A DNA stretch of 40,004 nucleotides from a virus (IMGVR_UViG_2645727669_000017); one strand, 5' to 3'. Positions 1,781 to 18,644 are shown, counted from the stretch's first letter. Numbers and translations: made by a program. The notes: a model not told the origin generated them from the sequence alone.

Positions 1781-3334
1781 TTATTGGTCAGGATATTTTG
1801 ATAGTTCAACTTCAAAAGTTGAATTTTTGTTTTTTAGAACATGAACAACACCTTTATAAAGTTGCCGTAATTTATTTACTGCATTTATATCAATGGAAGC
1901 AGGGGAGAATGCTCGGATAAGATTGTTGAAGATTTCCTTGGAGTAAGCAGATTTCTTCTTTTTATCAAGAGAGTCCATTCTTTTAATAATGATTTCTAAA
2001 AGATATGTCTTTTGATTGTTATGCATTTTTTCTGAAGTAATAATCAGATACATCATTTCCCCCAAGGTTTTAGAGGCAAAGAACTCTGGAGATTGCTCTT
2101 TATCTTCTGTTGTCCAGTTATCATAATTGAGGTGTTCTGTTGCTCCTGCCCATATATTACAACGGCTGATTAGCTCATATATTAAATAATCAAATCGCAT
2201 GGGGAACTCTCTATTTACATCTATGCTGCTAGATTTTTCATAGCTCTCAAGTATTTCCTTTAGGAAACAACGATAATACATGAGCCACATATTGTTTTTT
2301 GAGCGTTTGAATATTGCTGTAGATACCATAACATCGAAAAACGTCAATCCAACGAAGATTGGGCATTCCCAACGCTCATCACTACTTGAATAGTAATTAT
2401 CTGGATGATTGTAAAAGCAAGAACTCCCTTTTTGTTTTTTTATGTAGCTAATGACATAATTACCCACAGGTTTCCATATTTCTAAATCTATCGCCATGCG
2501 AATATCATTTAAATAAAAATTAAGCAAGGCATTACTTTCGTCGAGTGCATACTCCCCTGTATATGAACGATTTTGGTTGTCTCGTAACTCCCTATACATA
2601 ATGCTGTTTGGGTTAGATATTAAATACGTAAAGAAATTTGTATTATACTCACAATTATATCTAAGCTGTAAGCAGGTGGCCTTCATAGCTACGTGAGGGT
2701 AAGTATCAATTAGATAATGTGAAAAAACCTTTGATTTCAGAAGATTGGATATATTTAATTGAATATCATTTTGTCTTTTGTCTTCATAAGGGAAAAACTT
2801 TGACATAAATCTCCTGACTTTTTTGAATCGTAATTTTTTTACCTTCTCTTCATCCATTTCAATGGGAGATAATGAAGGGGCTAAGTAATTATGTACGCGA
2901 ACATACCATTTTTTATTGCTGATTATATTGAATAGCTGCTCGTGATATTTATCAAAAAGATATCCTAGTTGTTCTATTTTTTTTGCGCGCAGATATGTTT
3001 CTGAAACACTGATCCAACAGGTAAGGTTTGCTTTTGGTAGTATTTTGCCCTGTACTTTAATTCCAAAAAATATAATTATGATACAAAGACAAGTAAAAGC
3101 CAATGTATCTTCGTTAAAACCGAGTATCCAAGGGATCGGTTTTATCGGGAAAACACTTAGCAAAACCTTAGAATATATAACTGTTAATATTGTTGATATA
3201 AAAAAGATAATGAATACTAAATTAAATTTAGATATGCGTAACCTTAAATCAACACGTCTCTCATCCGTTAAGAGAGTATACCAAGCAATAAGTATGACGA
3301 AGACTGCTAGTAAACCATTGGCACCCATTATCAC
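1781..3334 (-). CDS. AT-rich membrane-anchored protein of unknown function (about 3 N-terminal TM helices plus ~420-aa soluble domain); candidate phage-defence or exclusion gene
   Basis: 517-aa ORF; hydrophobic N-terminus (LLAVFVILIAWYTLL, LVFIIFFISTILTVIY, LAFTCLCIIIIFFGI); N/K/I/Y/F-rich composition and visibly low GC versus flanking DNA; AT-rich promoter-like sequence upstream at 3335-3385. Confidence 0.6.
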   Translation of the reverse strand: MIMGANGLLAVFVILIAWYTLLTDERRVDLRLRISKFNLVFIIFFISTILTVIYSKVLLSVFPIKPIPWILGFNEDTLAFTCLCIIIIFFGIKVQGKILPKANLTCWISVSETYLRAKKIEQLGYLFDKYHEQLFNIISNKKWYVRVHNYLAPSLSPIEMDEEKVKKLRFKKVRRFMSKFFPYEDKRQNDIQLNISNLLKSKVFSHYLIDTYPHVAMKATCLQLRYNCEYNTNFFTYLISNPNSIMYRELRDNQNRSYTGEYALDESNALLNFYLNDIRMAIDLEIWKPVGNYVISYIKKQKGSSCFYNHPDNYYSSSDERWECPIFVGLTFFDVMVSTAIFKRSKNNMWLMYYRCFLKEILESYEKSSSIDVNREFPMRFDYLIYELISRCNIWAGATEHLNYDNWTTEDKEQSPEFFASKTLGEMMYLIITSEKMHNNQKTYLLEIIIKRMDSLDKKKKSAYSKEIFNNLIRAFSPASIDINAVNKLRQLYKGVVHVLKNKNSTFEVELSKYPDQ

Positions 3335-3385
3335 CTCTGAATAAGCTACATTTAGACATTCATAAAAAACTTTAATACTATGTAC

Positions 3386-3580
3386 TTATTGTAACAAATT
3401 CTGGGTGTTTTCATCAGAATTATCTGCATCATCCTGCACCATTAATTTTGGTGCTTCGCTGGTGGTATTTGCAACATCTACTTCAGGCACAGAGTAGACA
3501 GTCTGATTAGGTTTAGCTCTGTGCCATAGATGTGTTAACTCACATCTGAACGAATACGTATTACTCAATAACTCCCGCAA
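3386..3580 (-). CDS. Small acidic hypothetical protein downstream of xis (uncertain)
   Basis: 64-aa ORF overlapping the xis-like stop by ~20 nt; no recognisable motif. Confidence 0.2.
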   Translation of the reverse strand: MRELLSNTYSFRCELTHLWHRAKPNQTVYSVPEVDVANTTSEAPKLMVQDDADNSDENTQNLLQ

Positions 3581-3755
3581 ACCTGTATATCTTGCGTGAT
3601 GCCCATTTATTTGGGCAGGATTTAATATCAGGATCTGGGAAGTCAGGCCTGTATTTCTGGCCAGTTCTCCTGTTTACGCTGTTCCAGCGAAGAACTGTCG
3701 ATACTGAAACGCCACAGAAATCAGCGACTTGTTTAGTTGTCATTAAGTTGTTCAT
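3561..3755 (-). CDS. xis: Excisionase / AlpA-family HTH DNA-binding protein
   Basis: 64-aa ORF with TTKQVADFCGVSVSTVLRW HTH and a downstream FPDP...KW motif characteristic of AlpA/Xis-type proteins. Confidence 0.5.
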   Translation of the reverse strand: MNNLMTTKQVADFCGVSVSTVLRWNSVNRRTGQKYRPDFPDPDIKSCPNKWASRKIYRFAGVIE

Positions 3756-4936
3756 TACTTCACCTCCTGCGGCGGCTCCGGTAGCGGCATCCAGTGGGTT
3801 ACTTTCGATGCCGGTTCTTCCCCATTGTCAGTAACTGCCCACCATTTGTTTCTCGAACAATCGTAATACCCTTCGAAGGTATCGCACTCAGTCCAGCCGT
3901 AAGACTTACCCCAACACCAAACATACTGTTTATCGTTCGGCATTCGCTCACTACAGCTTATCCAACCATCCGGAGTTACCGGAGAGTTGCCATTCACAAG
4001 GTCAGCTCGAACATATAGCGTGTCATCATGGTGCTGATTGTGGCTGCACCACGTTAATTCGCTTAACTCGCCATCTTCTGGCCATACTCCAGCTGTTTGC
4101 AGCCAGATATGGGCTGGCGCATCTTGGCAAGGTGTATTAACTGGCAACTTGTAAGTTTGGCTTACAGGTTGGCTACCCTGAAGCATGGCCGCGCGGCAGG
4201 CATTCCACCCCTTCACATAACCGAACGCCATCAACTGATCATTCATGGCGGGCAGCATTGTGTGGGTCGTACTGATTTCCTCCGGCACTACTGGCGATGG
4301 CTGTTTGGCTTCTAAATCAGCAATTCTGTCAACTACGGCATCGACAGCATCTGAAAAACTGAAACAGTTACTCCACTCCGGCCAGTTCCCGGTTGCTGCA
4401 AAGTACATATCTGCTAAAGCAGATTCAGCATGGTCACGCTCGTTAATGAGTTGCTCTTCGCTTTTCTCCAGTTCAGCAATACGCTTCTCTGCGGCTTCTG
4501 CCCTGCATTGTTCCCGTTGGAACATTTTGTGGGTGCGGTCGAGCGCCTCAAGTCTGGCTGCTGATGTTTTCTCTTCTGCTTCAAGCTCAACGCGCAGCTT
4601 CCCAACCGTAAGCGCAATATCCTCGTTCTCCTGGTCGCGGGATTTGATGTATTGCTGGTTTCTTTCCCGTTCATCCAGTAGTGCCAGCGCAACATTTGGA
4701 TTAAAAGCAGCAATAAATTCAGCGTTTGCATAAGCCTGAACATCTGTTTCAATCAGGCAGTTAACATGACATTCCGCAATCACGCCACCGGGTTCTCCTT
4801 TCCATTTTTGACAAACAAAAACTCCTGTTAAATTGCCGTGTTGGTTAACAGATGTATGCCCTACGATGTAGCTTCCTTTAGTTGCTTTCTCTGCCTTTTC
4901 ACGCAGTGCCTGATAGTCAATTGTCATTCTCGCCAT
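3755..4936 (-). CDS. Ea22-like early protein with central coiled coil and C-terminal DUF551-like Cys/Trp-rich domain
   Basis: 393-aa ORF; coiled-coil region (ELEAEEKTSAARLEALDR...); C-terminal WCWGKSYGWTECDTFEGYYDCSRNKWW resembling the DUF551 domain of lambdoid Ea22-like proteins. Confidence 0.55.
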   Translation of the reverse strand: MARMTIDYQALREKAEKATKGSYIVGHTSVNQHGNLTGVFVCQKWKGEPGGVIAECHVNCLIETDVQAYANAEFIAAFNPNVALALLDERERNQQYIKSRDQENEDIALTVGKLRVELEAEEKTSAARLEALDRTHKMFQREQCRAEAAEKRIAELEKSEEQLINERDHAESALADMYFAATGNWPEWSNCFSFSDAVDAVVDRIADLEAKQPSPVVPEEISTTHTMLPAMNDQLMAFGYVKGWNACRAAMLQGSQPVSQTYKLPVNTPCQDAPAHIWLQTAGVWPEDGELSELTWCSHNQHHDDTLYVRADLVNGNSPVTPDGWISCSERMPNDKQYVWCWGKSYGWTECDTFEGYYDCSRNKWWAVTDNGEEPASKVTHWMPLPEPPQEVK

Positions 4937-5550
4937 CCTTCACAGTTGTAATCACTACAGCCTTCAAAATCATATGGGTTGTACTGCCAGGTGATTTTTC
5001 CGCAATGCGGACAATTCCAACGCACCTTCCCGCTTCGCGACTTCTTTCTTCTGTTCTGCTTTTTCAACCAGTCAGGCATGACCAAACCTGCGCCCTGAAC
5101 CATTGTTCTGCGGTTAAAGTTATTGATATTGAACGTCCGGCGCTTTGCTGAATCAGCAATGGAAAATGGCAACCAAACTATTCCTGGTTCGTTTTTGTTG
5201 GCGACGCTAAAGATGGTCGCTTTACTGAAGTCATCTGTTGGCAATCCACCGTGTTGAAGCCAGTAAACATCGTTGCCGTTCCAGCTACTTTTTTTGTAGG
5301 CCACATACGCAGTGCAATCTGGCTCAATCAGGTTTTCTGTAGGGATGTACTGGTAATCAACGTGCCACACAGCCATTGCATCCACGCTATCAGCGCAAAC
5401 AGGCTGATCGATATCTCGACCACAATTCCAGGCTTTTTGGGCTTCTTCCAGCGTGTAAACATGAGCGCGATCGATATTAGAACTGTAACCATTGCCGTTA
5501 TGGCAATGGAATGAAGCGTTATTACCCACAGTTTCACGCAAGCACATCAT
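4924..5550 (-). CDS. Hypothetical early protein with C-terminal Cys-rich zinc-ribbon-like motif
   Basis: ORF 4924..5601; an internal Met (MMCLRE) gives a start that does not overlap the upstream gene; C-terminal CPHCGKITW...CSDYNC. Confidence 0.45.
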   Translation of the reverse strand: MMCLRETVGNNASFHCHNGNGYSSNIDRAHVYTLEEAQKAWNCGRDIDQPVCADSVDAMAVWHVDYQYIPTENLIEPDCTAYVAYKKSSWNGNDVYWLQHGGLPTDDFSKATIFSVANKNEPGIVWLPFSIADSAKRRTFNINNFNRRTMVQGAGLVMPDWLKKQNRRKKSRSGKVRWNCPHCGKITWQYNPYDFEGCSDYNCEGWRE

Positions 5551-5564
5551 GTAAAAGCGGTTAT

Positions 5565-5915
5565 TCACTGGTTGCCTCCTTTGCGAATCTGTTCCGCCCA
5601 TTCTTCAAGGGATTTCTCCGCATATTCACCGGACAGACCATCAATCGGGTGCGGTTCATTAGCCAACTCATCTTTCGCTGACAGAATCATGCGTGTAACG
5701 TCGAAAACTTCACGTAAAGACTTATTGATAAATCCGTGATTGAACGCAGCAGCAAGGCGGCTTGCGGTATAGTTAATACCCTCGTTGCGAGCCTCAGCAC
5801 GTACTTCATCGAATTTACGCACCAGATACTCAGCATTTGTTTCATTCACTTTCAGATCTCGCGGTACACATTTCCCGCGAAGAAACCCTTCCATTTCGAA
5901 AACATTCATGCGCAT
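5565..5915 (-). CDS. Hypothetical early protein (possibly CPS-53 YfdS-like)
   Basis: 116-aa ORF; alternative start at 5909 forms an ATGA overlap with the upstream stop. Confidence 0.5.
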   Translation of the reverse strand: MRMNVFEMEGFLRGKCVPRDLKVNETNAEYLVRKFDEVRAEARNEGINYTASRLAAAFNHGFINKSLREVFDVTRMILSAKDELANEPHPIDGLSGEYAEKSLEEWAEQIRKGGNQ

Positions 5916-6442
5916 TTGCGTAACTCCGATAACTCGTTAAAACGTTCCATAAACATCCCGTAGGCATGGCCCGGTGCCAGTGGAATCACGTTGAACATCT
6001 CTGTTGCCGGGATGCCTTCCAGTACAGGCCAGAAAGAGCCATCATCAAGCCCGAGATCGCGGCGTTCGGTTGCCAGCATGATGAGATCGGCATATTTCAC
6101 GGGCGTACTCATAACCGGGGGTAACCCGTATTTCTCACGGATTACGGCGTCTATTTTTTCTTCCATCTGTTTATAGTCAGGAAGAAGGCGTTTCAGTGGA
6201 GCGGGGATGTCCTGGCAATACGCTTCTGTTGCATCATGCATTAACGCTTCAAAAGCAAATTCCTGCGGTACCAGCTGGCTGCAAAGAACCGCATGTTGGG
6301 CGACGCTGTAGAAGTGCGAAAGATGACCGGCAAAGCGACAGATATTTGAAAGGGAAACCGCGATATCGTTAATATCGATGTCGTCTTTATTTATCCTGTC
6401 ATAATAAAAATGCTTACCGGAAAAAGTTTTAATAAATGACAT
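5906..6442 (-). CDS. yfdR: HD-domain phosphohydrolase, likely a 5'-deoxynucleotidase (YfdR-like)
   Basis: Metal-binding motifs H..H and HD (VAQHAVL, LMHDATEAY); the 178-aa product from the internal ATG (MSFIKTF) with GGAG RBS matches the recalled size of E. coli YfdR. Confidence 0.7.
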   Translation of the reverse strand: MSFIKTFSGKHFYYDRINKDDIDINDIAVSLSNICRFAGHLSHFYSVAQHAVLCSQLVPQEFAFEALMHDATEAYCQDIPAPLKRLLPDYKQMEEKIDAVIREKYGLPPVMSTPVKYADLIMLATERRDLGLDDGSFWPVLEGIPATEMFNVIPLAPGHAYGMFMERFNELSELRKCA

Positions 6443-6569
6443 TTTGTTCTCCACGTATATGCGCTGCACCGCGCTGAATTCTGGTAAAAGGAAGCCCTCA
6501 CCATCCGGCGATTATTGAGTTAATTACGTTTCCATAAATGCCCCCGCAGGGGCATTTGCAGTAATGAAA

Positions 6570-7394
6570 TCAGGCGGTGAAAGTACCAATAAAGGTTTCT
6601 ACTTTGCTGTCTTTGAATTTCTCAACAAGCAGATCACGAAATTCGTTAGCCATTTCTTCCTGCACTGCTTCCAGCTGAATAATGCGCAGAACCAGTACAG
6701 GACGATCGCCAGTGATAATGCTGAGGCGTAATTTAAATGGACGTTCTTTCAGACCTTCAAACGGAACGCATTTAAATTCAAATGCCACTGGCATAATATC
6801 TTTGGTCTTCGCTTCGACAGACTCCATCAGGGAGCGTTTGCCGCTGAAGTCATTATCTTCAAAATCAGCGGTCTGGTTTGCTTCAATCGTGATTTTACGG
6901 ACAGCCGCAGCCGCTTTTGTTGCCTGAATAGCGTCACCATTAGCATCAAAGCCCACAAGGTAGTCGGCCCAGTCTTCAATCCATTCTGCCAGTGACTTCT
7001 GGGAGTTACGCTCGCCATTAACAGACAACAGAGCAGAAAACGGTGCTGTCTTTTTTAGCTTGAGAGTGGCGGTGTTATCTGCGTGACCTGGTTCATCAAT
7101 AGTACCCAGGTTAAGCACACTGACGGCACGCATATTATCGGCATCGATAAAGCAGCGGGTGCCTTCATCTGCAAGATCTTTAGAATAACGGGTAAAGTCA
7201 TCGATGCTGGCAGTGGAAAGCGCACCACGGAAACGGAAACGATTTAAATTAAATTTTTCCAGATCATGAATGCGGAAATTCTCAGGCAATGCCACAGCAT
7301 CGGCACCAATCTTACTGATAATTTCATTAACACCCTGAGCAGAAATAAGGGCATGGATTTGATTAATTGCGGTTGCGTCTAAGTTCTGAGACAT
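6570..7394 (-). CDS. yfdQ: DUF2303-like early protein (YfdQ-like)
   Basis: 274-aa ORF in an operon with the HD phosphohydrolase; length and context fit my recollection of the CPS-53 yfdP-Q-R-S arrangement. Confidence 0.5.
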
Positions 7395-7458
7395 AATAAG
7401 TCCTCACTATATAAAGATATTCAGTGATGAGATAAATAATCAGTTTATTAATAACGTA

Positions 7459-7821
7459 TTAATGACCTGCTGCGCGGAGTTTTCCGTCAGGTTCACCGGC
7501 AAGAGTCAGTAATTGTCCCTGGTCTTCCTGCAGAATAGTCAGGCGACCACCGCGATTGACATACATCGGCGTTTCGGTGGTGTCTTCTTCGGAAATTTTC
7601 CCGCGGTTAGTCGGGCGAACATATGAGAGTTTGTGTTTGATTTTCACACGGTTCTCATCAAATGGTTCGATTTCCAGGTTGAGTGAGACCTTACCTTTGG
7701 TTTTCGTGTTCATCACACCTGAAGCGACTTCACTGAGAACTGCGCCGATTTTGGTTTCAAATACGCCGCCGTCCAGCTCCCCGATAAATGCCTGCACATC
7801 AGTACTGCGTTCGCTAGCCAT
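7459..7821 (-). CDS. yfdP: Hypothetical early protein (YfdP-like), first gene of the leftward early operon
   Basis: 120-aa product from internal ATG (MASERSTDV) preceded by GAGGAG RBS; the longer track ORF (to 8052) runs into a structured non-coding leader. Confidence 0.5.
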   Translation of the reverse strand: MASERSTDVQAFIGELDGGVFETKIGAVLSEVASGVMNTKTKGKVSLNLEIEPFDENRVKIKHKLSYVRPTNRGKISEEDTTETPMYVNRGGRLTILQEDQGQLLTLAGEPDGKLRAAGH

Positions 7822-7869
7822 TTTGCTGCTCCTCATCATATCGACCCTGCAAGGTCGGTTGGTTTCTCC

Positions 7870-7957
7870 ACAAAACAGAGAAGAACACCTGCGGTGGCAG
7901 CCGCCCGGGTGGATTGGGTTATGAGCCCGTCGTCCGGTGATGCTCTTCTCTGTTTTG
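7870..7957 (-). ncRNA. Long imperfect hairpin (15-bp arms) in the untranslated leader of the leftward early operon; candidate structured regulatory RNA
   Basis: ACAAAACAGAGAAGA (7870-7884) is the exact reverse complement of TCTTCTCTGTTTTGT (7943-7957); ~58-nt GC-rich interior with further complementarity. Confidence 0.35.
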
Positions 7958-8429
7958 TAAAAAGAGCGGTACCAGCCGGAAGCAAGTGTACAAACTGGTA
8001 CCGCCAAAGCAGTGGCTGTTGTGGTGGGCTTGTCACTTAAGCGTATGGTCAACCTGACAACCCGGTGTCCTCAACGGGGAAGGAATAACCCCGCCATACT
8101 TACCGCCGCGCCATTTCGCGGATTACCACAACGCTGAGAGCACTTAGCCAGTTACGGCACCACACTTTGTCGCGGTTCCATAAATGCCCTCATCGTTGCA
8201 CCCTGGTCTCTTCCCAGGCGTCAAACCGAATCGCCACGCTGGTTAGGCGTCTTATCAGCATCCTCATTGACTTGCACATTCCGGCTACCTGGTTTGTTTG
8301 CCCGAGCAAGGAGTGGATTGTCCCCTTTAACGTCCCCAGACCGCTAACGACGCATGTGCCATACGCCGTGTTACAACCAAATTTTGTTAGTACCTTGTTT
8401 GTAGGTCTGGAAAGAAAGATAAAATGAAG

Positions 8430-8468
8430 TTGCGCATTATGCAAGTGTTTTTATTGCGAGATATGCAA
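8430..8468 (-). promoter_or_regulatory. oL/pL-like region: two operators of form TTGC-N7-GCAA overlapping a leftward sigma70-like promoter
   Basis: TTGCGCATTATGCAA (8430-8444) and TTGCGAGATATGCAA (8454-8468); on the minus strand TTGCAT and CATAAT-like hexamers about 17 nt apart. Confidence 0.45.
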
Positions 8469-8524
8469 TTTGGTGGGTAATGAAAAGCCACCTTCTGGTG
8501 GCTAATTGATGTTGAGGTAGGGGG

Positions 8525-9217
8525 TTAATTGTGTCGCTTAAGGGTTTGTGACTGACTGATTAAGACCTTTCCAAAGACCATAAACCGATGTTCGTTTTCG
8601 CTGGTAATTCCCCATTCGCGGTAAATCTGATTATCAGAAATTACCAGCAGTTTATCAGGTATCATTTGCAGTCGTTTGACGTAAATTTTATCATCAAAAC
8701 CAAATACATATATACCATCCCCATCAAACTGATTGATACTGATATCAACGAAGATGAGATCTCCTGGCTCAATGGTTGGACACATACTGTCCCCACGAAC
8801 GTTGATAACTTTAATGTGATTTGCTGGTCGTCCACCAAACATCGATACAGCATTATCAGTTCTGTATTCAATGGCATGAATCACATCAATGACATCACCG
8901 CCCTGGATAAGGCCATTTCCCGCACTGGCACTGACATCCAGCATTTCAATACGGAATACATCCTTCACCTGCGCAACATCCTCACTAATACTGTTTTTAC
9001 ATACAGTATTACTTTTGAGGTCTGAGGTAAAGAGATCAGCAATATCAACACCTAAGCTCCTGGCAATATTACTCAGGGCTTGTTCAGTGAATTGTTTCTG
9101 CTTACCTGTTTCGAGGCGCGAGATATTCGCCGCATCCACTCCTATTGCTTCAGCGAGATCGGCGATTTTCATGTTCTTCGCCTGGCGAAGTTGTCTGACT
9201 CGATTTCCTATGTTCAT
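8525..9217 (-). CDS. CI-like prophage repressor (XRE HTH + S24 LexA-type autopeptidase domain)
   Basis: 230-aa ORF; N-terminal HTH (RVRQLRQAKNMKIADLAEAIGVDAANISRLETGK); C-terminal S24 signature (GDSMCPTI...KRL); divergent from the cro-like gene. Confidence 0.9.
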   Translation of the reverse strand: MNIGNRVRQLRQAKNMKIADLAEAIGVDAANISRLETGKQKQFTEQALSNIARSLGVDIADLFTSDLKSNTVCKNSISEDVAQVKDVFRIEMLDVSASAGNGLIQGGDVIDVIHAIEYRTDNAVSMFGGRPANHIKVINVRGDSMCPTIEPGDLIFVDISINQFDGDGIYVFGFDDKIYVKRLQMIPDKLLVISDNQIYREWGITSENEHRFMVFGKVLISQSQTLKRHN

Positions 9218-9237
9218 GCGTTTATTACATTTCTTTA

Positions 9238-9300
9238 TTGCGCGTTAAGCAAATCAACTTGCGCAAAATATTTGCGTGAAATAATATGCTCATCACGCAA
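9238..9300. promoter_or_regulatory. oR region with pR/pRM: operator TTGCGCGTTAAGCAA, palindrome TTGCGCAA and inverted repeat TTGCGTGA...TCACGCAA
   Basis: Same half-site (TTGC/GCAA) as the oL sites; putative pR -35 TTGCGC (9259-9264) and -10 TAATAT (9282-9287), 17-nt spacer, upstream of cro RBS GGAGG. Confidence 0.5.
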
Positions 9301-9314
9301 TATGTGGAGGTTAT

Positions 9315-9575
9315 ATGCAATCACCATTACGGAATGTGCGTAAGGCGCACGGATTTACTTTGCAGCATGTTGCTGCGGGCGTTCAGGTCAATCCAGCGAC
9401 GCTGAGTCGTATTGAAAGACTGGAACAAATTCCATCTATCGAGCTTGCAGAACGTCTGGCCAATTTTTTTAAGGGAGAAATCAGCGAAATGCAGATTCTC
9501 TATCCTGCACGCTTTCAATCTAGTCAAAACCGGAATGAGTTAAAACCACAGGAACAGGAGGTAAGCCGTGGGTAA
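9315..9575 (+). CDS. Cro-like HTH regulator
   Basis: 86-aa ORF with XRE-type HTH (FTLQHVAAGVQVNPATLSRIER); transcribed divergently from the repressor off the oR region. Confidence 0.75.
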   Translation: MQSPLRNVRKAHGFTLQHVAAGVQVNPATLSRIERLEQIPSIELAERLANFFKGEISEMQILYPARFQSSQNRNELKPQEQEVSRG

Positions 9576-10119
9576 GCATCACTGGAAAGTGGAAAAACAG
9601 CCTGAGTGGTACGTGAAAGCTGTCAGAAAAACTATCGCGGTGTTGCCGGGGGGTTACGCTGAAGCTGCTGAGTGGCTGGATGTAACAGAGAACGCTTTAT
9701 TCAACCGCCTTCGTGCCGATGGCGATCAGTTTTTTCCGTTGGGATGGGCAATGGTTTTACAGCGTGCGGCTGGTACTCACCACATTGCGGATGCTGTCGC
9801 ACAGTCTGCTGGTGGGGTGTTTGTATCACTTCCAGAAATTGAGGAAGTAGAGAACGCCGATATAAACCAGCGCCTGCTGGAAGTCATCGAACAGATCGGG
9901 AGTTACTCAAAGCAGATTCGTTCGGCAATCGAAGATGGGGTAGTGGAGCCACACGAGCAGACAGCAATTAATGATGAGTTGTATCTGTCAATTTCGAAGC
10001 TCCAGGAGCATGCAGCACTGGTCTACAAAATCTTCTGCGCTCCAGAAAAGAGTAACGCCCGCGAGTGTGCAGCTCCGGGCGTCGTGGCGTTTTGTGTCTG
10101 TGGAGAAACTAACGCATGA
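9568..10119 (+). CDS. CII-like / YdaT-like phage regulatory protein
   Basis: 183-aa ORF with GTG start immediately downstream of cro, overlapping it; assignment by position and size only. Confidence 0.45.
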   Translation: MGKHHWKVEKQPEWYVKAVRKTIAVLPGGYAEAAEWLDVTENALFNRLRADGDQFFPLGWAMVLQRAAGTHHIADAVAQSAGGVFVSLPEIEEVENADINQRLLEVIEQIGSYSKQIRSAIEDGVVEPHEQTAINDELYLSISKLQEHAALVYKIFCAPEKSNARECAAPGVVAFCVCGETNA

Positions 10120-10444
10120 ACAGTTTAACGGCAAATAACCGTTTGTCGCAACAGCTGGTGGTCAGTGTCGCTGCACACCTGTTGTTACGGCATGAATGCA
10201 GATTACCAAATCACCTGGCTGTAAGTAACCACAGAGAACTTTACCTGACTGTGGGGGGCGAGTTGTGCAGGAACTTAACCGCTGGTTTCGTGACGGAAGA
10301 GGACTTTATGTTCATGTTATTCGTTGGGAGCCAGAAACACAGCGCGTTATCTATCTTCGCAAAGACTACCCGCATGAGTGCTTTAGTCCTTTGTGGAAAT
10401 TCAGGCGTGATTTTGTTGAGTGTGAAGGACCACCAGCATATTGA
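10116..10444 (+). pseudogene. Small gene apparently split by a frameshift at a G6 tract (10253-10258)
   Basis: The frame from ATG 10116 (MNSLTANNRLSQQ...LYLTVGG) and a second open frame (RVVQELNRWFRDGRGLYVHVIRWEPETQRVIYLRKDYPHECFSPLWKFRRDFVECEGPPAY-stop at 10444) meet at GTGGGGGGCG; together ~108 aa. Confidence 0.3.
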
Positions 10445-10718
10445 TTCTGCAATTCCGGGACGTTACACTGTTCAGGCACCTTATAAAGCGGGTGCCGGGA
10501 TTGGCGTCCTGAAATTGTCAACGGCGATGTATGACGCGCCAGCGTCTTTTTTATCGTCCGCATTTGCTCACATCCAGATTATGGTGGGCTGGGCGGGGGC
10601 ACCGAAAGGTGCGCCGGTCTCCGTTGACGCCGGTTACGCCAACCCCGTCCAGTTCACCACCAGTGAAATTGGCGTTTCCGGTGGTGGAAGTTTTTCACTG
10701 TCAACGGAGGCTGCCATC

Positions 10719-11276
10719 ATGGCTACGATCCAAGCCCTCACTCAACCTGAAATCACCATTGACAACGGCCAGGCCGTTACCACTTCTTTGGCTGTTGCCA
10801 ACTTCTTCTCCAAGCGTCACGACGATGTGCTGAAAAAGATCCGCACTCTGGATTGTTCCCCTGAGTTTTGTGCCCGCAATTTTGCGGAGACATCGATTTC
10901 GGTAAATCAACCGAACGGTGGTACACGCAAGCTCCCTTGCTATCAAATCACACGAGACGGTTTTGCGTTTCTTGCTATGGGTTTCACGGGTAAACGTGCT
11001 GCCCGGTTCAAAGAGGCATACATCAATGCCTTTAACCAGATGGAAAAACTGCTTTCAAAGCCATCCACGCTGAGCGATGCCGCAGATAACGCCAGCGTGC
11101 TTTACTCCCACCTGTCGGTAATCCACAAGGTCTGGCTGCAGCAGCTTTATCCTATGTTGGCAAAAGCTGAATCTCCGCTGGCTGTTAGCTTATATGATTA
11201 TATTAATGATGCTTCGGCGCTGGCCTGCCTCATAAATTTGTCGCTGAACCCTTCAGAGGTAAGGGGGCGCAAATGA
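10719..11276 (+). CDS. Rha-family phage regulatory protein
   Basis: Conserved Rha-like N-terminus (ITIDNGQAVTTSLAVANFFSKRHDDVLKKIRTL) starts at internal ATG 10719 with GGAGG RBS; the 386-aa track ORF 10116..11276 is judged composite. Confidence 0.6.
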   Translation: MATIQALTQPEITIDNGQAVTTSLAVANFFSKRHDDVLKKIRTLDCSPEFCARNFAETSISVNQPNGGTRKLPCYQITRDGFAFLAMGFTGKRAARFKEAYINAFNQMEKLLSKPSTLSDAADNASVLYSHLSVIHKVWLQQLYPMLAKAESPLAVSLYDYINDASALACLINLSLNPSEVRGRK

Positions 11277-11497
11277 TCCGGAATATTTTCAAACGGTTTA
11301 CCAATCAGACTTTCCGTTGTCCTCGTCCGGGTCAGTGGTACACCACACCTGCAGGGCATGTTCTACGTGTTAGCCTGGTTGACCGTGAATGTCAGAAGGT
11401 GATTTGTGAACCGCTGGGCCGTAATTACCGCGTCAGTATGCCGCTTATAGCCTTTCGCTCCGGAAAAAACATGAAGCATCTCGGAGGTGCTGCATGA
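11273..11497 (+). CDS. Small hypothetical protein
   Basis: 74-aa ORF with ATGA overlap to the Rha stop and overlapping the next gene start. Confidence 0.35.
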   Translation: MIRNIFKRFTNQTFRCPRPGQWYTTPAGHVLRVSLVDRECQKVICEPLGRNYRVSMPLIAFRSGKNMKHLGGAA

Positions 11498-12312
11498 GTA
11501 TGGAGCTGATGGTTAAAGCGATGAAAATTCGAGTGGGTAATCCATTGCGAAAACTGGTTCTGATCAAGCTGGCTGATAATGCCAGCGATCAGGGGGAGTG
11601 CTGGCCCAGCTACCAGCATATTGCTGACCAGTGCGAGATTAGCAAACGTTCTGTGATGAATCATATTGCGGCCCTTTGTGAGTCCGGGCTGGTAAAAAAA
11701 GTCACCCGGAAAGGTGAAAAAGGTAACTCAAGTAATATCTATCTCCTTCATCTGGATGGTGCAGGAGATTCACTAGGGGGTAGTGCAAATAATTCACTAT
11801 CTGGCGCAGCAAATTCACCAGGTAGTGCAGGAGTTGCACCAGGGGGTAGTGCAGGAGATTCACCCAGAACCAGTCACTCTTTTGAACCAGTCAAAGAACC
11901 AGTCAATGAACCAATAGCTGTTGGTGCATCAGTTGATGAGTCTGTGCGAGTTCGTTCAAACCGACCGGAATACTCTCCGGAGTTTGAGCAGGCATGGCTG
12001 GCATATCCCAAACGTGCTGGTGGCAATTCAAAATCTGCAGCCTTCAAAGCCTGGAAAGCCCGTTTGAATGAGGGGGTAAACCCCGAAACCATGCTGGAAG
12101 GTGTGAAACGCTACGCGGGCTGGGTATCTGCGATGGGTAACAGCGGCACACAATTTGTGAAACAGGCTGTCACGTTCTTTGGTCCGGATCGTCATTTCGA
12201 AGAATCCTGGGAAGTTCCTGCGGTATCTGCAGCCAGACGTGAGGACCCGTACTTCAAAGCCAGTTACGACAACGTGGACTACAGCCAGATCCCGGCAGGA
12301 TTCAGGGGGTGA
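11494..12312 (+). CDS. Replication initiation protein (O-like, N-terminal winged HTH) with internal origin iterons
   Basis: 272-aa ORF; N-terminal HTH (SYQHIADQCEISKRSVMNHIAALCESGLVKK); Gly/Ser/Ala-rich repetitive linker encoded by direct DNA repeats; position after cro/cII. Confidence 0.65.
   Translation: MSMELMVKAMKIRVGNPLRKLVLIKLADNASDQGECWPSYQHIADQCEISKRSVMNHIAALCESGLVKKVTRKGEKGNSSNIYLLHLDGAGDSLGGSANNSLSGAANSPGSAGVAPGGSAGDSPRTSHSFEPVKEPVNEPIAVGASVDESVRVRSNRPEYSPEFEQAWLAYPKRAGGNSKSAAFKAWKARLNEGVNPETMLEGVKRYAGWVSAMGNSGTQFVKQAVTFFGPDRHFEESWEVPAVSAARREDPYFKASYDNVDYSQIPAGFRG
11759..11910. repeat. Iteron-like direct repeats inside the replication gene; candidate ori
   Basis: About four copies of GG(T/G)AGTGCAGGAG(A/T)T(T/G)CAC between 11759 and 11866, followed by three GAACCAGTC repeats (11866-11910). 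Confidence 0.5.
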
Positions 12313-12314
12313 TC

Positions 12315-12803
12315 ATGAGTCTTTTGAATGAAGTTCAGAAATACATTGAAGCCCATCCGGGGTGTACTTCCGGAGACATTGCGGATGCTTTTGCAGGTTA
12401 CTCACGGCAGCGCGTTCTGCAGTATGCAAGCAAGTTACGTCAGAGTGGGCGTGTGGCTCACCGTTGTGAAGGAGATACACGCAGACATTTCCCGCGCCTG
12501 ACTGAGAGAGCGCAGGAGCTGGAACCACAACCAGTTCGTGAAACCAGACCTGTGCGCAATTTCTATGTCGGCACTAACGACCCGCGGGTGATTTTGTGCC
12601 TGACCCGCCAGGCGGAAGAACTGGAGTCAAGGGGCTTATACCGTCGTGCTGCAACCGTGTGGATGGCGGCATTCCGTGAAAGCCACTCCCAGCCAGAACG
12701 AAACAATTTTCTGGCACGTCGTGAGCGGTGCTTACGGAAAAGCAGCAAGCGCGCTGCATCGGGTGAAGAGTGGTATCTGTCAGGGAATTACGTGGGGGCT
12801 TAA
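12315..12803 (+). CDS. PerC-family transcriptional regulator homologue with N-terminal winged-helix region
   Basis: PerC-like motif LESRGLYRRAATVWMAAF...RRERCLRK; ATG 12315 with AGGGGG RBS; TAATG overlap with the next gene. Confidence 0.5.
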   Translation: MSLLNEVQKYIEAHPGCTSGDIADAFAGYSRQRVLQYASKLRQSGRVAHRCEGDTRRHFPRLTERAQELEPQPVRETRPVRNFYVGTNDPRVILCLTRQAEELESRGLYRRAATVWMAAFRESHSQPERNNFLARRERCLRKSSKRAASGEEWYLSGNYVGA

Positions 12804-13456
12804 TGAGTAATAAATATTGCCGGGCGCTGGTGGAACTGCGGAACAAACCAGCCCATGAACTGAAGGAAGTGGGCGATCAGTGGCGCACGCCGGATAACAT
12901 TTTCTGGGGAATTAACACCCTGTTTGGCCCGTTTGTCCTGGATCTGTTTACTGACGGTGATAACGCCAAATGTACCGCGTATTACACGGCGGAAGACAAC
13001 GCGCTGGCGCATGACTGGTCAGAACGTCTTGCGGAGCTTAAAGGTGCTGCCTTTGGTAATCCCCCATACAGCCGCGCCAGTCAGCATGAGGGGCAATACA
13101 TCACCGGCATGCGTTACATCATGAAACATGCCAGTGCCATGCGTGATAAAGGCGGGCGCTATGTTTTCCTGATCAAAGCTGCCACCTGCGAAGTGTGGTG
13201 GCCGGAAGATGCAGATCATATTGCTTTTATTCGCGGGCGTATTGGTTTTGAACTGCCTGCCTGGTTTATCCCGAAAGATGAGAAGCAGGTGCCGACAGGC
13301 GCTTTCTTCGCTGGTGCTATTGCTGTTTTCGACAAGACCTGGAAGGGACCGGCAATCAGCTACATCGGGCGCGATGAACTTGAGGCATGTGGTGAGGCGT
13401 TTCTGGCGCAGGTTCGCCAGCAGGCAGAAAAACTGGTCAGGGAGATGGCGGCATGA
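12803..13456 (+). CDS. Phage DNA N6-adenine methyltransferase (Dam-like)
   Basis: NPPY catalytic motif (GNPPYS) within a ~217-aa product; start from TAATG overlap at 12803. Confidence 0.8.
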   Translation: MSNKYCRALVELRNKPAHELKEVGDQWRTPDNIFWGINTLFGPFVLDLFTDGDNAKCTAYYTAEDNALAHDWSERLAELKGAAFGNPPYSRASQHEGQYITGMRYIMKHASAMRDKGGRYVFLIKAATCEVWWPEDADHIAFIRGRIGFELPAWFIPKDEKQVPTGAFFAGAIAVFDKTWKGPAISYIGRDELEACGEAFLAQVRQQAEKLVREMAA

Positions 13457-13779
13457 CGACGTTAACTCAATGCCAGCAGCAGGTGCTGGATATGCTGATT
13501 TCTTATCAGAAAGAACGTGGCTTCCCGCCAACCAATCAGGAGGTGGCAACCATGCTGGGATACCGTTCAGTGAATGCAGCGGTGGAGCATCTTCGCGCAC
13601 TGGAGAAAAAAGGCGTCATCACGATAAAGCGTGGCGTGGCCCGGGGGATCACGCTTCATACCGCGGTGAAGGACGACGACAGCGAGGCGGTCGGGATTAT
13701 CCGCTCACTGCTTGCCGGTGAGGAAAACGCAAGGCTGCGTGCAACCCACTGGTTACATGAGAGAGGCTTGAAAGCATGA
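13453..13779 (+). CDS. LexA-like DNA-binding-domain protein lacking the S24 protease domain
   Basis: 108-aa ORF; N-terminus (LTQCQQQVLDMLISYQKERGFPPTNQEVATMLGYRSVNAAVEHLRALEKKGVI) parallels the LexA N-terminal winged HTH; no Ser/Lys dyad domain. Confidence 0.6.
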   Translation: MTTLTQCQQQVLDMLISYQKERGFPPTNQEVATMLGYRSVNAAVEHLRALEKKGVITIKRGVARGITLHTAVKDDDSEAVGIIRSLLAGEENARLRATHWLHERGLKA

Positions 13780-14165
13780 AGCTGATCCTGCCTTTTCCGC
13801 CCAGCGTGAACACGTACTGGCGACACCCCAACAAAGGGGCGTTTGCTGGTAAGAGCCTGATAAGCTCGGCGGGGCGAAAATTCCAGAGCGCGGCGTGCGC
13901 AGCAATAGTTGAGCAGTTACGTCGTCTGCCGAAACCAACGTCGGCACCTGCTTCAGTGGAGATCGTGTTGTTTCCTCCGGATAACCGGATCCGCGATCTG
14001 GACAACTATAACAAGGCGCTGTTTGACGCCCTGACCCATGCGGGTGTGTGGGAAGACGACAGTCAGGTGAAAAGAATGCTGGTGGAGTGGGGACCGGTTA
14101 TCCCGAAAGGGAAGGTCGAGATCACTATCAGTAAGTACGAGAAAACGGCGGGTGCAGCCGCCTGA
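13776..14165 (+). CDS. rusA: RusA Holliday junction resolvase
   Basis: 129-aa ORF with RusA-like LPFPPSVNTYWRH and DLDNYNKALFDALT motifs. Confidence 0.85.
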   Translation: MKLILPFPPSVNTYWRHPNKGAFAGKSLISSAGRKFQSAACAAIVEQLRRLPKPTSAPASVEIVLFPPDNRIRDLDNYNKALFDALTHAGVWEDDSQVKRMLVEWGPVIPKGKVEITISKYEKTAGAAA

Positions 14166-14184
14166 TCAAGAGGAGAAACGAAGT

Positions 14185-14994
14185 ATGAATAATCTGATGG
14201 TCATTGATGGTATTGAAGTTCGTCGTGATGCTTATGGGCGTTACAGCCTGAACGATCTGCATCGCGCAGCAGTAGCATCTGGTGCAAATGCCAGAACCAA
14301 GGAGCCGGGAAAGTTTCTTTCCAGCCAACAAACTGTTGAGCTTGTTCATGAATTGACCAACACCCAGAATTTGGGTGTTGACCCGGTGAGTGTGATTCAT
14401 GGGGGAAATGAACGGGGAACGTATGTCTGCAAGGAACTGGTGTATGCCTATGCAATGTGGATCAGCCCGTCATTCCATCTGAAGGTGATCCGTACTTTCG
14501 ATATGGTAACCAGCGCACCGGAAAAATTATCCGGACAGGCTGCTGACAAGATGCAGGCTGGCGTGATCCTGCTGGACTTTATGCGCCGGGAGTTAAACCT
14601 GTCTAACTCTTCAGTGCTTGGTGCCTGTCAGAAACTCCAGGAGGCTGTTGGCTTACCGAATCTGGCACCGCGCTATGCCATTGATGCTCCTGCTGATGCA
14701 CACGATGGCTCAAGTCGCCCGACACTGTCACTGAGTGCACTGCTGAAACAGTATGGTATACGCCTGACGGCTAATCAGGCATATCACCAGATGGTGAAAC
14801 TGGGGATCGTCGAGCAGCGCGAACGATACAGCCGTACCGCGATTAACAACATCAAAAAATTCTGGTCGCTGACAGCGAAAGGCTGCATGTTCGGCAAGAA
14901 CATCACCAGTCCCGCAAATCCGCGCGAGACGCAGCCGCATTTCTTCGAATCCCGATTCTCTGAGCTGTTAAAGCTGCTCGATACCGTTCATTGA
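14185..14994 (+). CDS. KilA-N domain protein
   Basis: N-terminal KilA-N signature (VIHGGNERGTYVCKELVYAYAMWISPSFHLKVIRTF); internal ATG 14185 preceded by AAGAGGAG RBS. Confidence 0.7.
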   Translation: MNNLMVIDGIEVRRDAYGRYSLNDLHRAAVASGANARTKEPGKFLSSQQTVELVHELTNTQNLGVDPVSVIHGGNERGTYVCKELVYAYAMWISPSFHLKVIRTFDMVTSAPEKLSGQAADKMQAGVILLDFMRRELNLSNSSVLGACQKLQEAVGLPNLAPRYAIDAPADAHDGSSRPTLSLSALLKQYGIRLTANQAYHQMVKLGIVEQRERYSRTAINNIKKFWSLTAKGCMFGKNITSPANPRETQPHFFESRFSELLKLLDTVH

Positions 14995-14995
14995 G

Positions 14996-15991
14996 GTGAC
15001 CGTGAGAGCACTACTGACCCCTGAAATTGCCCCGCGTATGGGGATCGTATTGTTCAGGCCAGGTTCAGAGCTGATGCCCCTGTTTATGCAGGGGCGTGTC
15101 CTGCTGGAGCCTGAGCCGGAGCGTTATTCATCTTTCGCCAGTGGTGCCGTTCCGGCGGCATCACAACCGCTGGCGGATGATCCTGCCGTTCGGGCCGTGT
15201 TCCGCAATGAGGCAGTGATCCGTCGTGCTGGTGGCGTGGAATGTCTTGAAAGCTGGTTACTTCGTGAAAAAGGCTGCCAGTGGCCTCATTCCGACTGGCA
15301 CAGCGAGAACATGACCACAATGCGACACGCTCCGGGTGCAATCCGTCTGTGCTGGCACTGCGATAACCAGCTGCGCGATCAGTTCACGGAACGGCTGGAA
15401 TCAATGGCAACGGATAACTGTGCCCGCTGGGTGTTGTCTGTTGTGCGTCGGGATCTCGGTTTTGATGACAGTCACGTTGTGACAATGCCGGAACTGTGCT
15501 GGTGGCTGATTCGTAATGATCTGGCGGATGCCTTACCGGAAAGTGCAGCCCGTAAGGCACTGAGATTACCGAAGCCTGTTGTGCCGTCTGTTACCCGGGA
15601 AAGTGACCTTGTGCCTTCGGTTCCTGCCACCAGCATCATCCAGGATAAGGCGAAAAAGGTGCTGGCGCTGAAAGTGGATCCGGAGTCGCCGGAGTCTTTT
15701 ATGTTACGCCCAAAACGTCGCCGCTGGGTTAATGAAAAGTACACGCGCTGGGTTAAGACACAGCCGTGTGCATGTTGTGGAAAGCCCGCTGATGATCCCC
15801 ACCACCTGATAGGTCACGGTCAGGGTGGAATGGGAACAAAAGCGCATGACCTTTTTGTGTTGCCTTTGTGCAGAAAGCATCACGACGAGCTGCATGCGGA
15901 TACCGTGGCATTTGAAGAGAAGTATGGCTCCCAGCTGGAGCTGATATTTCGTTTTATCGATCGTGCGCTGGCAATTGGCGTGCTGGCCTGA
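14996..15991 (+). CDS. DUF968-like prophage protein with C-terminal HNH-type zinc-finger nuclease motif
   Basis: 331-aa ORF (GTG start); C-terminal [13 protein letters not shown]...HHDELH typical of HNH/DUF968 proteins of lambdoid nin regions. Confidence 0.6.
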
Positions 15992-16008
15992 TTTTGTGGA
16001 GAAAGTTG

Positions 16009-16374
16009 ATGCGTGATATTCAAATGGTTCTTGAACGTTGGGGGGCATGGGTGGCAAATAATCACGAGGATGTCACCTGGTCGTCTATTGCTGCAGGATT
16101 TAAAGGACTAATCCCTTCAAAAGTAAAATCCCGCCCGCAATGTTGTGACGATGACGCGATGATCATTTGTGGATGCATGGCTCGCCTGAAAAAGAACAAC
16201 AGCGATTTGCACGATTTATTAGTGGATTATTATGTAGGTGGTATGACTTTTATGGCGCTTGCCCGTAAACATGGGCGTTCTGATTGCTGGGTTGGGCGTT
16301 TATTGCAAAAGGCTGAAGGTGTAGTTGATGGCATGTTAATGATGTTAGAAATTGAGCTAGAGATGGATCGTTAG
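16009..16374 (+). CDS. Late-gene antiterminator Q (short Q family)
   Basis: ~121-aa product from internal ATG ([14 protein letters not shown]...) with Cys-rich zinc-binding core ([16 protein letters not shown]); last gene before the late region. Confidence 0.65.
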
Positions 16375-16385
16375 AAGACCTCTTA

Positions 16386-16414
16386 TTGAGGGGGTAATTG
16401 AATCAGTTTAATGT
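16386..16414 (+). promoter_or_regulatory. Candidate late promoter pR'
   Basis: TTGAGG (16386-16391), 17-nt spacer, TAATGT (16409-16414), immediately downstream of the Q stop. Confidence 0.3.
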
Positions 16415-16415
16415 G

Positions 16416-16446
16416 TGGGGAGTCGATTTATTCTCCCCATTTTATT
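16416..16446 (+). terminator. Rho-independent terminator (candidate tR') just downstream of the putative late promoter
   Basis: TGGGGAG (16416-16422), 10-nt loop, CTCCCCA (16433-16439), then a T-rich run. Confidence 0.5.
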
Positions 16447-16454
16447 TAATTTAT

Positions 16455-16901
16455 TTAAGGTTTTAATTCATCAAGACGTTGTTGGATAGTGTTTTTGCTT
16501 GCGTTGTCTGTTATAGACATTTGTTGTACTTGCCCCATTGCCATTTGAGTTTCCATCCACATATCGGCCCACACTTTTGTATCGTTATTAACTTGAGCGA
16601 TAGTAAATCTGACTTTTGATACCGGGGTTGTTGAATAGGCATTGCCGATTAACATTTGTCCAAAAACAGCAGAGCCGCCTTCCAGTTCTTTACCACATAT
16701 AACACTGCTGTTATCCGCGTTGTAAATTATCAACCCTCTACTATTGCAGTAATTCACAAGGGCATCTTTGACTTTATCTTTTGTCGTATTTTGATAAACC
16801 CCCTCAGGTTTTCCTGATTGAGTTTTCTTTATCAATGGTACGGAAGAAGTACAACCTGAAATGATAGTTGCGCTAAGTAATAGTACAGTCATTTTATTCA
16901 T
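16455..16901 (-). CDS. Lipoprotein moron of unknown function, antisense to late transcription between Q and the lysis genes
   Basis: 148-aa ORF with lipoprotein signal peptide and lipobox (LLLSATIISGC); AT-rich; opposite orientation to flanking genes. Confidence 0.6.
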   Translation of the reverse strand: MNKMTVLLLSATIISGCTSSVPLIKKTQSGKPEGVYQNTTKDKVKDALVNYCNSRGLIIYNADNSSVICGKELEGGSAVFGQMLIGNAYSTTPVSKVRFTIAQVNNDTKVWADMWMETQMAMGQVQQMSITDNASKNTIQQRLDELKP

Positions 16902-17147
16902 GTTTCTTATCCATTGTTAAGGGCATACCCACACAATTATTTTTATTGGAGATGAATAATCAACCGTTTACAATCGTAAAAAATCAAATATGCTGTTAAG
17001 AGTGGTTACTTCGCCACACAACTTAAACCCGCCGCTGAGCGGTTTTTTTGTACCTGTAAACCTGGTGCAGTACAGTAAACACGCTGGTGGTCGTGAATAC
17101 TGACTTTTTATCTTGCTGGCTTTTTAGACAAGAGTTATTGGTATGTC

Positions 17148-17375
17148 ATGTTAACCAGAAGGGAAAAAGACATGCTAAAACAGCAAGATATGACAGAAAC
17201 CGCCGCCGCAGTCCTTCATTTCTTACCTGCTGACAAGTGGGTAACGCCACGCATGATGACGAGAACTACCGGAGTAAGCGAAGCCCGGTGCCAGTTAATA
17301 CTGACTCAGTTAGTTCTGGCGGGTCTGGCGAAGGATAACGGCGGGTACGGGAATAAATTCAGACGCTGCCAGTAA
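17148..17375 (+). CDS. Small putative winged-helix DNA-binding protein
   Basis: 75-aa ORF upstream of the methyltransferase; function unknown. Confidence 0.35.
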   Translation: MLTRREKDMLKQQDMTETAAAVLHFLPADKWVTPRMMTRTTGVSEARCQLILTQLVLAGLAKDNGGYGNKFRRCQ

Positions 17376-17525
17376 TGGCGGTTTCCTGCTGTGAAAATGG
17401 GCGGCTGGTGGGTGTTGGTAGCACCTGCCAGCCATTCGCTCATGCTTACTGGTCACAAGCGAACCACGGCCCACTGCTTTAGCGCAAAAGCAGAGTGAGC
17501 CTACCAGAGTTACGCTTACTGATCC

Positions 17526-18578: not shown

Positions 18579-18584
18579 TCTGGT

Positions 18585-18606
18585 GGCCACGTAGGTGGCC
18601 TTTTTA
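18585..18606 (+). terminator. Hairpin plus T-run between the methyltransferase and the holin
   Basis: GGCCAC (18585-18590), loop GTAG, GTGGCC (18595-18600), then TTTTT. Confidence 0.4.
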
Positions 18607-18644
18607 TTTCCATTACACAGCACCCGCATCTGCGAGGTGGGGTT

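Follow-up and report, generated by a model that had tools for sequence, protein, structure and literature searches.

An early-left yfdP-yfdQ-yfdR cassette in a lambdoid prophage and its possible role in DnaA-directed shut-off of host replication initiation

The viral stretch IMGVR_UViG_2645727669_000017, a window of 40,004 nt to whose full length all coordinates given here refer, carries at 4924-7821 a group of early-left genes that sequence comparison makes essentially certain to be the accessory cassette yfdP-yfdQ-yfdR known from lambdoid prophages of the SfV/CPS-53 type. The overall explanation that we prefer combines this identity with a DnaA-directed shut-off of host replication initiation, and we judge the combination to be somewhat more probable than its denial; within it, the identity is nearly certain, and the mechanism is held with moderate confidence.

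Five co-directional open reading frames (ORFs) on the minus strand fill the interval exactly, and their content agrees with an earlier note on this DNA, which had listed an HD-domain protein, a 274-aa DUF2303 protein and three small proteins. The gene yfdP (7459-7821) encodes 120 aa (Pfam PF27127 YfdP, phrog_204), yfdQ (6570-7394) encodes the 274-aa DUF2303 protein (PF10065, phrog_210), and yfdR (5906-6442) encodes an HD-domain phosphohydrolase (phrog_318) of 178 aa from its annotated start, the ATG at 6442, with a possible extension to a GTG at 6469 (5906-6469) that would give 187 aa. They are followed by a mosaic ORF of 116 aa (5565-5915) and by a zinc-ribbon ORF (4924-5601; phrog_2457) of 225 aa, or of 214 aa from the GTG at 5568 that serves as the start in RefSeq relatives. 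In BLASTP comparisons with prophage CPS-53 of E. coli K-12, YfdQ was 99.3% and YfdR 97.8% identical to their counterparts, and YfdP was 99.2% identical, which is the basis of its family assignment here (120 of the 120 listed homologues carry a precomputed PF27127 annotation). YfdQ is a full member of the DUF2303 family, matching the PF10065 hidden Markov model over residues 7-272 with 309.7 bits (cut-off 26.6, E=2e-92).

The cassette lies between a cI-type repressor gene (8525-9217, minus strand; Pfam Peptidase_S24 and HTH_3, PHROG transcriptional repressor), which forms the right boundary of the early-left region, and the Ea22/xis/int genes, as the earlier note had placed it. Its description of tightly packed, overlapping genes applies to only part of the string: overlaps of 10, 4, 13 and 1 nt were found at the four junctions from yfdR down to xis, whereas gaps of 64 nt (yfdP-yfdQ) and 127 nt (yfdQ-yfdR) separate the genes upstream.

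The cassette is common among E. coli genomes. Megablast detected the module DNA, annotated as yfdP/yfdQ/yfdR, in 3239 of 5426 complete genomes (about 60%), and the exact five-gene arrangement in only 12 of them. The yfdP-yfdQ-yfdR core is present in the viable phages SfV, SfIV and mEp460, and likewise in cdtI and many Shiga toxin (Stx) phages. Ratios of nonsynonymous to synonymous substitution (dN/dS) for the module genes, calculated against the K-12, ST64B and ArgO145 copies, ranged from 0.04 to 0.22, and the genes are therefore under purifying selection. These genes do not form one module: the cassette is a composite of a conserved YfdP-YfdQ pair, an independently distributed HD gene, more widely spread than the pair, and mosaic or mobile distal ORFs.

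The function of the module had also been described as not known; however, the near-identical K-12 copies have been the subject of published DnaA-binding and initiation-inhibition experiments (Noguchi & Katayama 2016, PMC4776307). In that work, yfdQ-yfdR-yfdS-yfdT emerged as a multicopy suppressor of hda-185, an over-initiating mutant, and the minimal inhibitory set consisted of yfdQ and yfdR together with either yfdS or yfdT, with yfdP being dispensable. Extra copies of the set block oriC initiation not only in several mutants but also in the wild type; in vitro, inhibition of oriC initiation is seen with extracts that contain an excess of YfdQRST. DnaA pulls down YfdR alone of the set. YfdR binds DnaA domains I-II via domain I, in a manner dependent on Phe46, and competes moderately with DiaA and the DnaB helicase, and the authors propose a lambda-P-like role in the ancestral phage (PMC4776307).

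By analogy with the K-12 copies, the cassette may act as follows. Leftward transcription would start from a repressor-controlled promoter beside two OL-like operators downstream of cI and would pass through a structured leader of roughly 600 nt. YfdR would bind DnaA domain I at Phe46, in moderate competition with DiaA and DnaB, and together with YfdQ and a third small protein would restrain initiation at oriC. In lytic growth, this could impose an early stop on new rounds of host replication and thereby spare DnaB for use at the phage origin. Host RecBCD, acting on the many Chi sites of the phage, would probably supply recombination. YfdP is a conserved partner of YfdQ. We do not regard the cassette as a functional substitute for lambda Red.

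For the present phage, yfdQ and yfdR of the initiation-inhibitor set are both found, and its YfdR differs from the K-12 allele at 4 of 178 residues, none of which belongs to the HD motif. The H...HD...D motif is intact, with AQH, MHD and KYAD aligning with PDB entry 2gz4 (E=3e-14), the uncharacterised protein Atu1052, which is the nearest solved relative of YfdR. The HD signature aligns with that of YfbR as well, placing YfdR in the HD-domain metal-dependent phosphohydrolase superfamily. Its identity to YfbR is 24%, and it falls short of the YfbR-like family thresholds in both Pfam (PF12917, 25.0 vs 25.9 bits) and NCBIfam (NF003009, 20.4 vs 122 bits), a combination by which we classify it as a distant relative of YfbR. 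Relatives of YfdR were found in 333 phage records, whose spread includes phages of Bacillus, Caulobacter, Rhizobium, Stenotrophomonas and Ruegeria. Since this spread differs from that of the pair, the HD gene is an independent, widespread module that is linked to YfdP-YfdQ in enterobacterial lambdoid phages.

The region upstream of yfdP contains elements that may govern expression. Just past the cI stop, a terminator-like hairpin (8486-8503, minus strand) has seven base pairs in its stem, 5 of them G-C, and TTTCATT comes after it. Next to it are two operator-like palindromes of 15 nt each, placed 24 nt apart on the minus strand, TTGCGCATTATGCAA and TTGCGAGATATGCAA (8430-8444 and 8454-8468). 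Together with TTGCGCGTTAAGCAA (9238-9252), which lies between cI and cro, they make up one repeat family, so that palindromes of 15 nt with the form TTGCG-N5-GCAA flank cI on both sides. The interval 8430-8468 is thus the probable leftward operator and promoter (OL/pL) region. A scan for the sigma-70 consensus called no promoter at the operator-like site, where reading by hand gave weak hexamers only. Within the leader of roughly 600 nt, some 50 nt ahead of the yfdP start, a long and nearly perfect hairpin occupies 7870-7958 (minus strand); it is formed by an inverted repeat of 25 nt with 84% complementarity (dG -61.5 kcal/mol, z = -4.6) and is followed by UUUUGU. Attenuation, termination or RNase III cleavage are conceivable roles for this structure, and a putative terminator is annotated at the equivalent place in SfV, between cI and orf32. 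The phages mEp460, PhiR47_1 and cdtI share the leader DNA (7822-8524) with 98-99% conservation, and yfdP is preceded by a good ribosome-binding site. Rfam searches returned nothing in 3300-9400, even at E<=0.1. Leftward, repressor-controlled expression, possibly with attenuation or RNA processing, is plausible on these features.

Several points weigh against the DnaA-directed explanation. Because no consensus promoter was called at the operator site and a strong hairpin lies ahead of yfdP, we infer expression from pL rather than observe it. The functional data all come from multicopy or over-expression experiments with the K-12 copies, deletion of yfdQRST gave no initiation phenotype, and the authors themselves concede a possible over-expression artefact (PMC4776307). 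In addition, the third component of the inhibitory set is not clearly present in this phage, which has no yfdT, retains only residues 1-42 of YfdS and carries DUF551 on an Ea22-like protein of 393 aa. DnaA binding is also unlikely to be the conserved role across all 333 records of YfdR relatives; these include phages of Bacillus, Caulobacter and Rhizobium, and the ancestral job of the family was therefore probably enzymatic.

The earlier note had the cassette replacing recombination genes. This is correct as regards position, and no lambda-type recombination genes appeared in the PHROG and Pfam scans. Across the early-left, early-right and nin ORFs, these scans recognised no annealing protein, exonuclease, single-stranded DNA-binding protein (SSB) or RecBCD inhibitor, so that no Rec module is recognisable, and their sole DNA-processing matches were RusA (13776-14165) and a DUF968/HNH protein. 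Chi sites (GCTGGTGG) are strongly enriched: 18 occur in the window, between 3458 and 24809, against 1.64 expected from shuffles, and none of 100 shuffles reached 18. The orientation is uneven, with 14 of the 18 on the plus strand, and 15 are located in 9808-19686, a segment covering the early-right, nin and lysis genes, at about one per 0.7 kb. Should cos be situated immediately ahead of the small terminase gene at 20659, this segment would make up the right-hand end of the genome as packaged. Zheng, Casjens, Davidson, Amundsen & Smith (2025, PMC12315714) have defined a lambdoid class with no Rec module and high Chi, and the gene content and Chi count of the present phage both match it. The same authors report a yfbR-like/yfdQ/yfdP trio in the early-left operons of phages LLS and ST64B.

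YfdP and YfdQ form a conserved pair of neighbours in phages infecting several gammaproteobacterial hosts. Searches with tblastn gave 184 phage records for YfdQ and 180 for YfdP, and the counts for each taxon (Escherichia, Vibrio, Stx phages, Xanthomonas, Salmonella, Shigella and Pseudomonas) were nearly equal. A search for related loci with the YfdQ alignment gave near-identical E. coli copies only, and the distant gene contexts come from phage records with annotation, namely those of ArgO145, Pseudomonas phage PG1, Vibrio phage 34E29.1, Xanthomonas phage Tenjo, Psychrobacter phage Psymv2 and Pseudomonas-type prophages. In every distant case opened, representing six unrelated phage or prophage groups, a YfdP homologue lies directly upstream of the DUF2303 gene. 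The gene 3' of DUF2303 is variable, encoding an SSB, a DUF820 protein, a DksA-type zinc finger or a hypothetical protein, and the neighbours of the pair are often DNA-transaction genes, such as those for SSB, recombinase, exonuclease, and DnaQ-like and Rv2179c-like nucleases. Carriers of the pair comprise phages of Escherichia, Salmonella, Vibrio, Pseudomonas/Stutzerimonas, Xanthomonas/Xylella, Psychrobacter and Acinetobacter. As a separate observation, in Pseudomonas/Stutzerimonas-type prophage contigs (L092-L095; genes at about 1847-2053 or 3809-4015) the early-left operon with YfdP-DUF2303 includes an Rv2179c-like exonuclease gene two genes 3' of DUF2303, and a CsrA homologue is encoded directly behind the repressor gene.

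DUF2303 is a large family, with 1467 representative clusters at 50% identity among 1.84 billion proteins, nearly all of them single-domain proteins of about 270 aa. Among 69 diverse members, the polar residues E46, T61, H104, Q132, E140, D141, R166 and R223 are nearly invariant, a pattern that hints at a defined site; the conservation of H104, Q132, E140, D141, R166 and R223 suggests that such a site in YfdQ might be for binding or catalysis. The predicted model of YfdP consists of a single long helix followed by a three-stranded sheet. Neither this model nor that of YfdQ gave a significant match in the fold libraries searched, and neither resembles Rad52/Red-beta/RecT/Erf, RecA-like or oligonucleotide/oligosaccharide-binding (OB) folds. 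For YfdP, no relative was found in the PDB sequence set, including by profile search, and a profile-profile comparison found no kinship between YfdP and YfdQ. A homologue of YfdQ is deposited as PDB 9o7m ("YfdQ Protein", 36 chains; E=1e-44), an entry absent from the fold libraries searched. By tblastn it originates from a group of Xanthomonas phages that includes MET23-P3 (98.8%) and Tenjo, and we found no paper citing the identifier 9o7m. By analogy with its 36 chains, YfdQ is probably a very large homo-oligomer. A more speculative proposal, which we consider unlikely, is that YfdP-YfdQ forms a self-contained two-protein cassette representing a novel type of factor for host takeover or for DNA transactions; it might, for instance, be what renders the block of DnaA by YfdR effective, or it might target intermediates of replication or repair without the HD protein.

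Alternative explanations for the cassette were weighed against this evidence. It is possible, although somewhat unlikely, that the HD protein is mainly an enzyme, and that DnaA binding is a side effect of over-expression. Acting early on deoxynucleoside monophosphates (dNMPs) as a phosphatase, or on signalling nucleotides as a hydrolase, it would alter nucleotide pools or disarm nucleotide-based defences, which is close to the idea of the earlier note. The intact metal-binding motif, the annotation of phrog_318 as a dNMP phosphatase and the RefSeq name of the K-12 protein, 5'-deoxynucleotidase, all favour such a role, and the occurrence of relatives in 333 phage records, including those of unrelated hosts, argues that it would be independent of the host. 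However, YfdR is only 24% identical to YfbR and falls below both family cut-offs, PADLOC found no defence-system match for any module protein, and no defence-related neighbour is present; none of the present results speaks specifically for a counter-defence role. For the K-12 protein, PMC4776307, citing Zimmerman et al. 2008, describes a much lower nucleotide affinity than that of the true 5'-deoxynucleotidase YfbR, and only a weak dNMP phosphatase activity. An improbable second proposal holds that the cassette chiefly aids the lysogen, through stress tolerance or control of other prophages, rather than lytic growth. According to work cited in PMC4776307, K-12 deletions of yfdQ or yfdS increase sensitivity to H2O2, and deletion of yfdQ also increases sensitivity to methyl methanesulfonate (MMS). 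Production of YfdQ restored plaques of the co-resident phage SW1 (bioRxiv 10.1101/413146), and the cassette has been kept intact in the decayed CPS-53 remnant. These reported phenotypes are nevertheless weak, the repressor-type operators and terminator-like leader predict silence in a lysogen, and the genes are kept both in viable phages and in apparently non-temperate ones (Vibrio phage 34E29.1 and the Xanthomonas phage Tenjo group).

We also considered, and rejected as very improbable, a hidden recombination module in which YfdP-YfdQ would be an unrecognised annealing, ssDNA-binding or DNA-repair pair replacing Red. Its appeal lies in the position of the pair, which is that of a Rec module, in its proximity to SSB, RecT/exonuclease or DnaQ-type nuclease genes in other phages, in the large oligomer that the chains of 9o7m would fit, and in the weak MMS sensitivity of the yfdQ deletion as cited in PMC4776307. 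The pair also occurs, however, beside complete Rec modules: in ArgO145 we confirmed the order Gam-RecT-Exo-SSB, then the YfdP homologue, then DUF2303, and in Tenjo a recombinase, an exonuclease and an SSB are encoded. Zheng et al. (PMC12315714) reached the same conclusion, that the trio is no hidden recombinase, since it is present beside the complete Rec module of ArgO145. The predicted models, unlike any of the recombinase folds considered, and the strong Chi enrichment, which points to reliance on RecBCD, weigh in the same direction. Least probable of all, and in our view extremely so, is that the cassette is a decayed and unexpressed remnant. A strong terminator-like hairpin in the leader, the lack of a called consensus promoter and the location of the best-studied copy in a cryptic prophage could be taken in its favour; against it, all ORFs are full length with low dN/dS, the cassette occurs in isolated plaque-forming phages, and the window, whose genes run from integrase to tail, has the look of an intact prophage. 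The preferred explanation remains the yfdP-yfdQ-yfdR cassette acting, as its K-12 copies suggest, on DnaA.

The distal ORFs belong to the variable part of the cassette. Residues 1-42 of the 116-aa ORF are 88% identical to the N-terminus of K-12 YfdS (BLASTP; phrog_583), and residues 36-116 match PHROG families 614, 14548 and 368, which correspond to C-terminal domains of other early-left or Ea22-type families; a DUF551 domain is lacking. The 214/225-aa ORF matches phrog_2457 with E=7.5e-117 and has a C-terminal zinc-ribbon-like motif of the form CxxC...C...C; it has no K-12 counterpart and no match in Pfam, NCBIfam, PDB or PADLOC. Its homologues appear in 163 phage records, of which 129 are from Vibrio, plus records named P1, SJ46 and IME10, with 95-96% identity in the latter three and 37-45% in more than 100 Vibrio phages. 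We class this ORF as a mobile accessory gene. It is followed in the operon by a gene (3755-4936, minus strand) for an Ead/Ea22-like protein (Pfam Ead_Ea22, E=1.9e-33) with a C-terminal DUF551 domain (E=3.8e-18), and the excisionase gene xis (3561-3755, minus strand; phrog_1553, E=7.7e-36) comes last in the leftward string. Between int and xis, a separate ORF of 517 aa (1781-3334, minus strand) lies in very AT-rich DNA, with a GC content of 0.33-0.40, compared with about 0.5 elsewhere. It matches phrog_13820, its N-terminus looks hydrophobic, and its position is typical of moron or defence genes; Pfam and PADLOC scans of this ORF gave no match.

On the rightward side, a single replication gene was recognised, encoding an O-like/DnaD-like initiator with HTH_36 (11494-12312, plus strand), followed by a gene for a PerC-like regulator, and no helicase or helicase-loader gene was recognised in the phage. 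Two Rfam matches above their gathering scores, isrK (10476-10552, plus strand; 62.2 bits) and C4 antisense RNA (10577-10664, plus strand; 81.4 bits), lie just upstream of, or within the 5' part of, a Rha/anti-repressor-like ORF at 10116-11276. This region looks like a P1/P7-type anti-repressor unit under antisense control.

As a discovery, the cassette carries little weight, being an already-described gene set that is found in K-12 itself and has a dedicated functional paper. Its residual value lies in an intact, probably inducible prophage that combines the DnaA-targeting genes yfdQ and yfdR with the signature of a Chi-rich phage without a Rec module. Its relatives mEp460 and SfV offer test cases for the silencing of host initiation via DnaA domain I and for the role of YfdP-YfdQ.

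In K-12 CPS-53 (KpLE1), the gene order yfdP-yfdQ-yfdR and the gaps of 64-65 nt and 127 nt match those of the present phage. Downstream, K-12 has yfdS and yfdT, whereas here the 116-aa ORF is followed by the 214/225-aa zinc-ribbon ORF in place of yfdT, and DUF551, which makes up K-12 YfdS, is instead fused to the Ea22-like protein. CPS-53 is a cryptic prophage at argW; in contrast, the present prophage is apparently complete and adjoins yjjG. The orf32-orf31-orf30-orf29 cassette of Shigella phage SfV occupies the same early-left slot between cI and xis/int. Cassette DNA from SfV and SfIV is about 98% identical to the present one, and the YfdQ protein of mEp460 is 99.3% identical, while the ST64B copies show only about 57-68% identity at the protein level. 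Among SfV, mEp460, SfIV, ST64B and the Stx phages, the distal accessory genes differ from phage to phage. LLS-type phages share with the present phage the lack of a Rec module, the one-sided Chi bias and the early-left yfbR-like/yfdQ/yfdP trio; the present phage differs from them by a RusA resolvase in its nin region, and its dependence on RecBCD is presumed.

At the level of the HD protein, YfbR and Atu1052 share with YfdR the metal-binding motif and the signature HDAxE...D(I/L)PxP(L/V)K; compared with YfbR, the K-12 copy of YfdR is reported to be distinguished by much lower nucleotide affinity and by DnaA binding (PMC4776307). Lambda P and B. subtilis SirA resemble YfdR in outline, each being a small protein that binds DnaA and blocks initiation (PMC4776307), and neither is related to it in sequence or fold. 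SirA uses the site of DnaA domain I equivalent to Phe46, as YfdR does, whereas lambda P, unlike YfdR, binds DnaA domain III and is also a helicase loader (PMC4776307).

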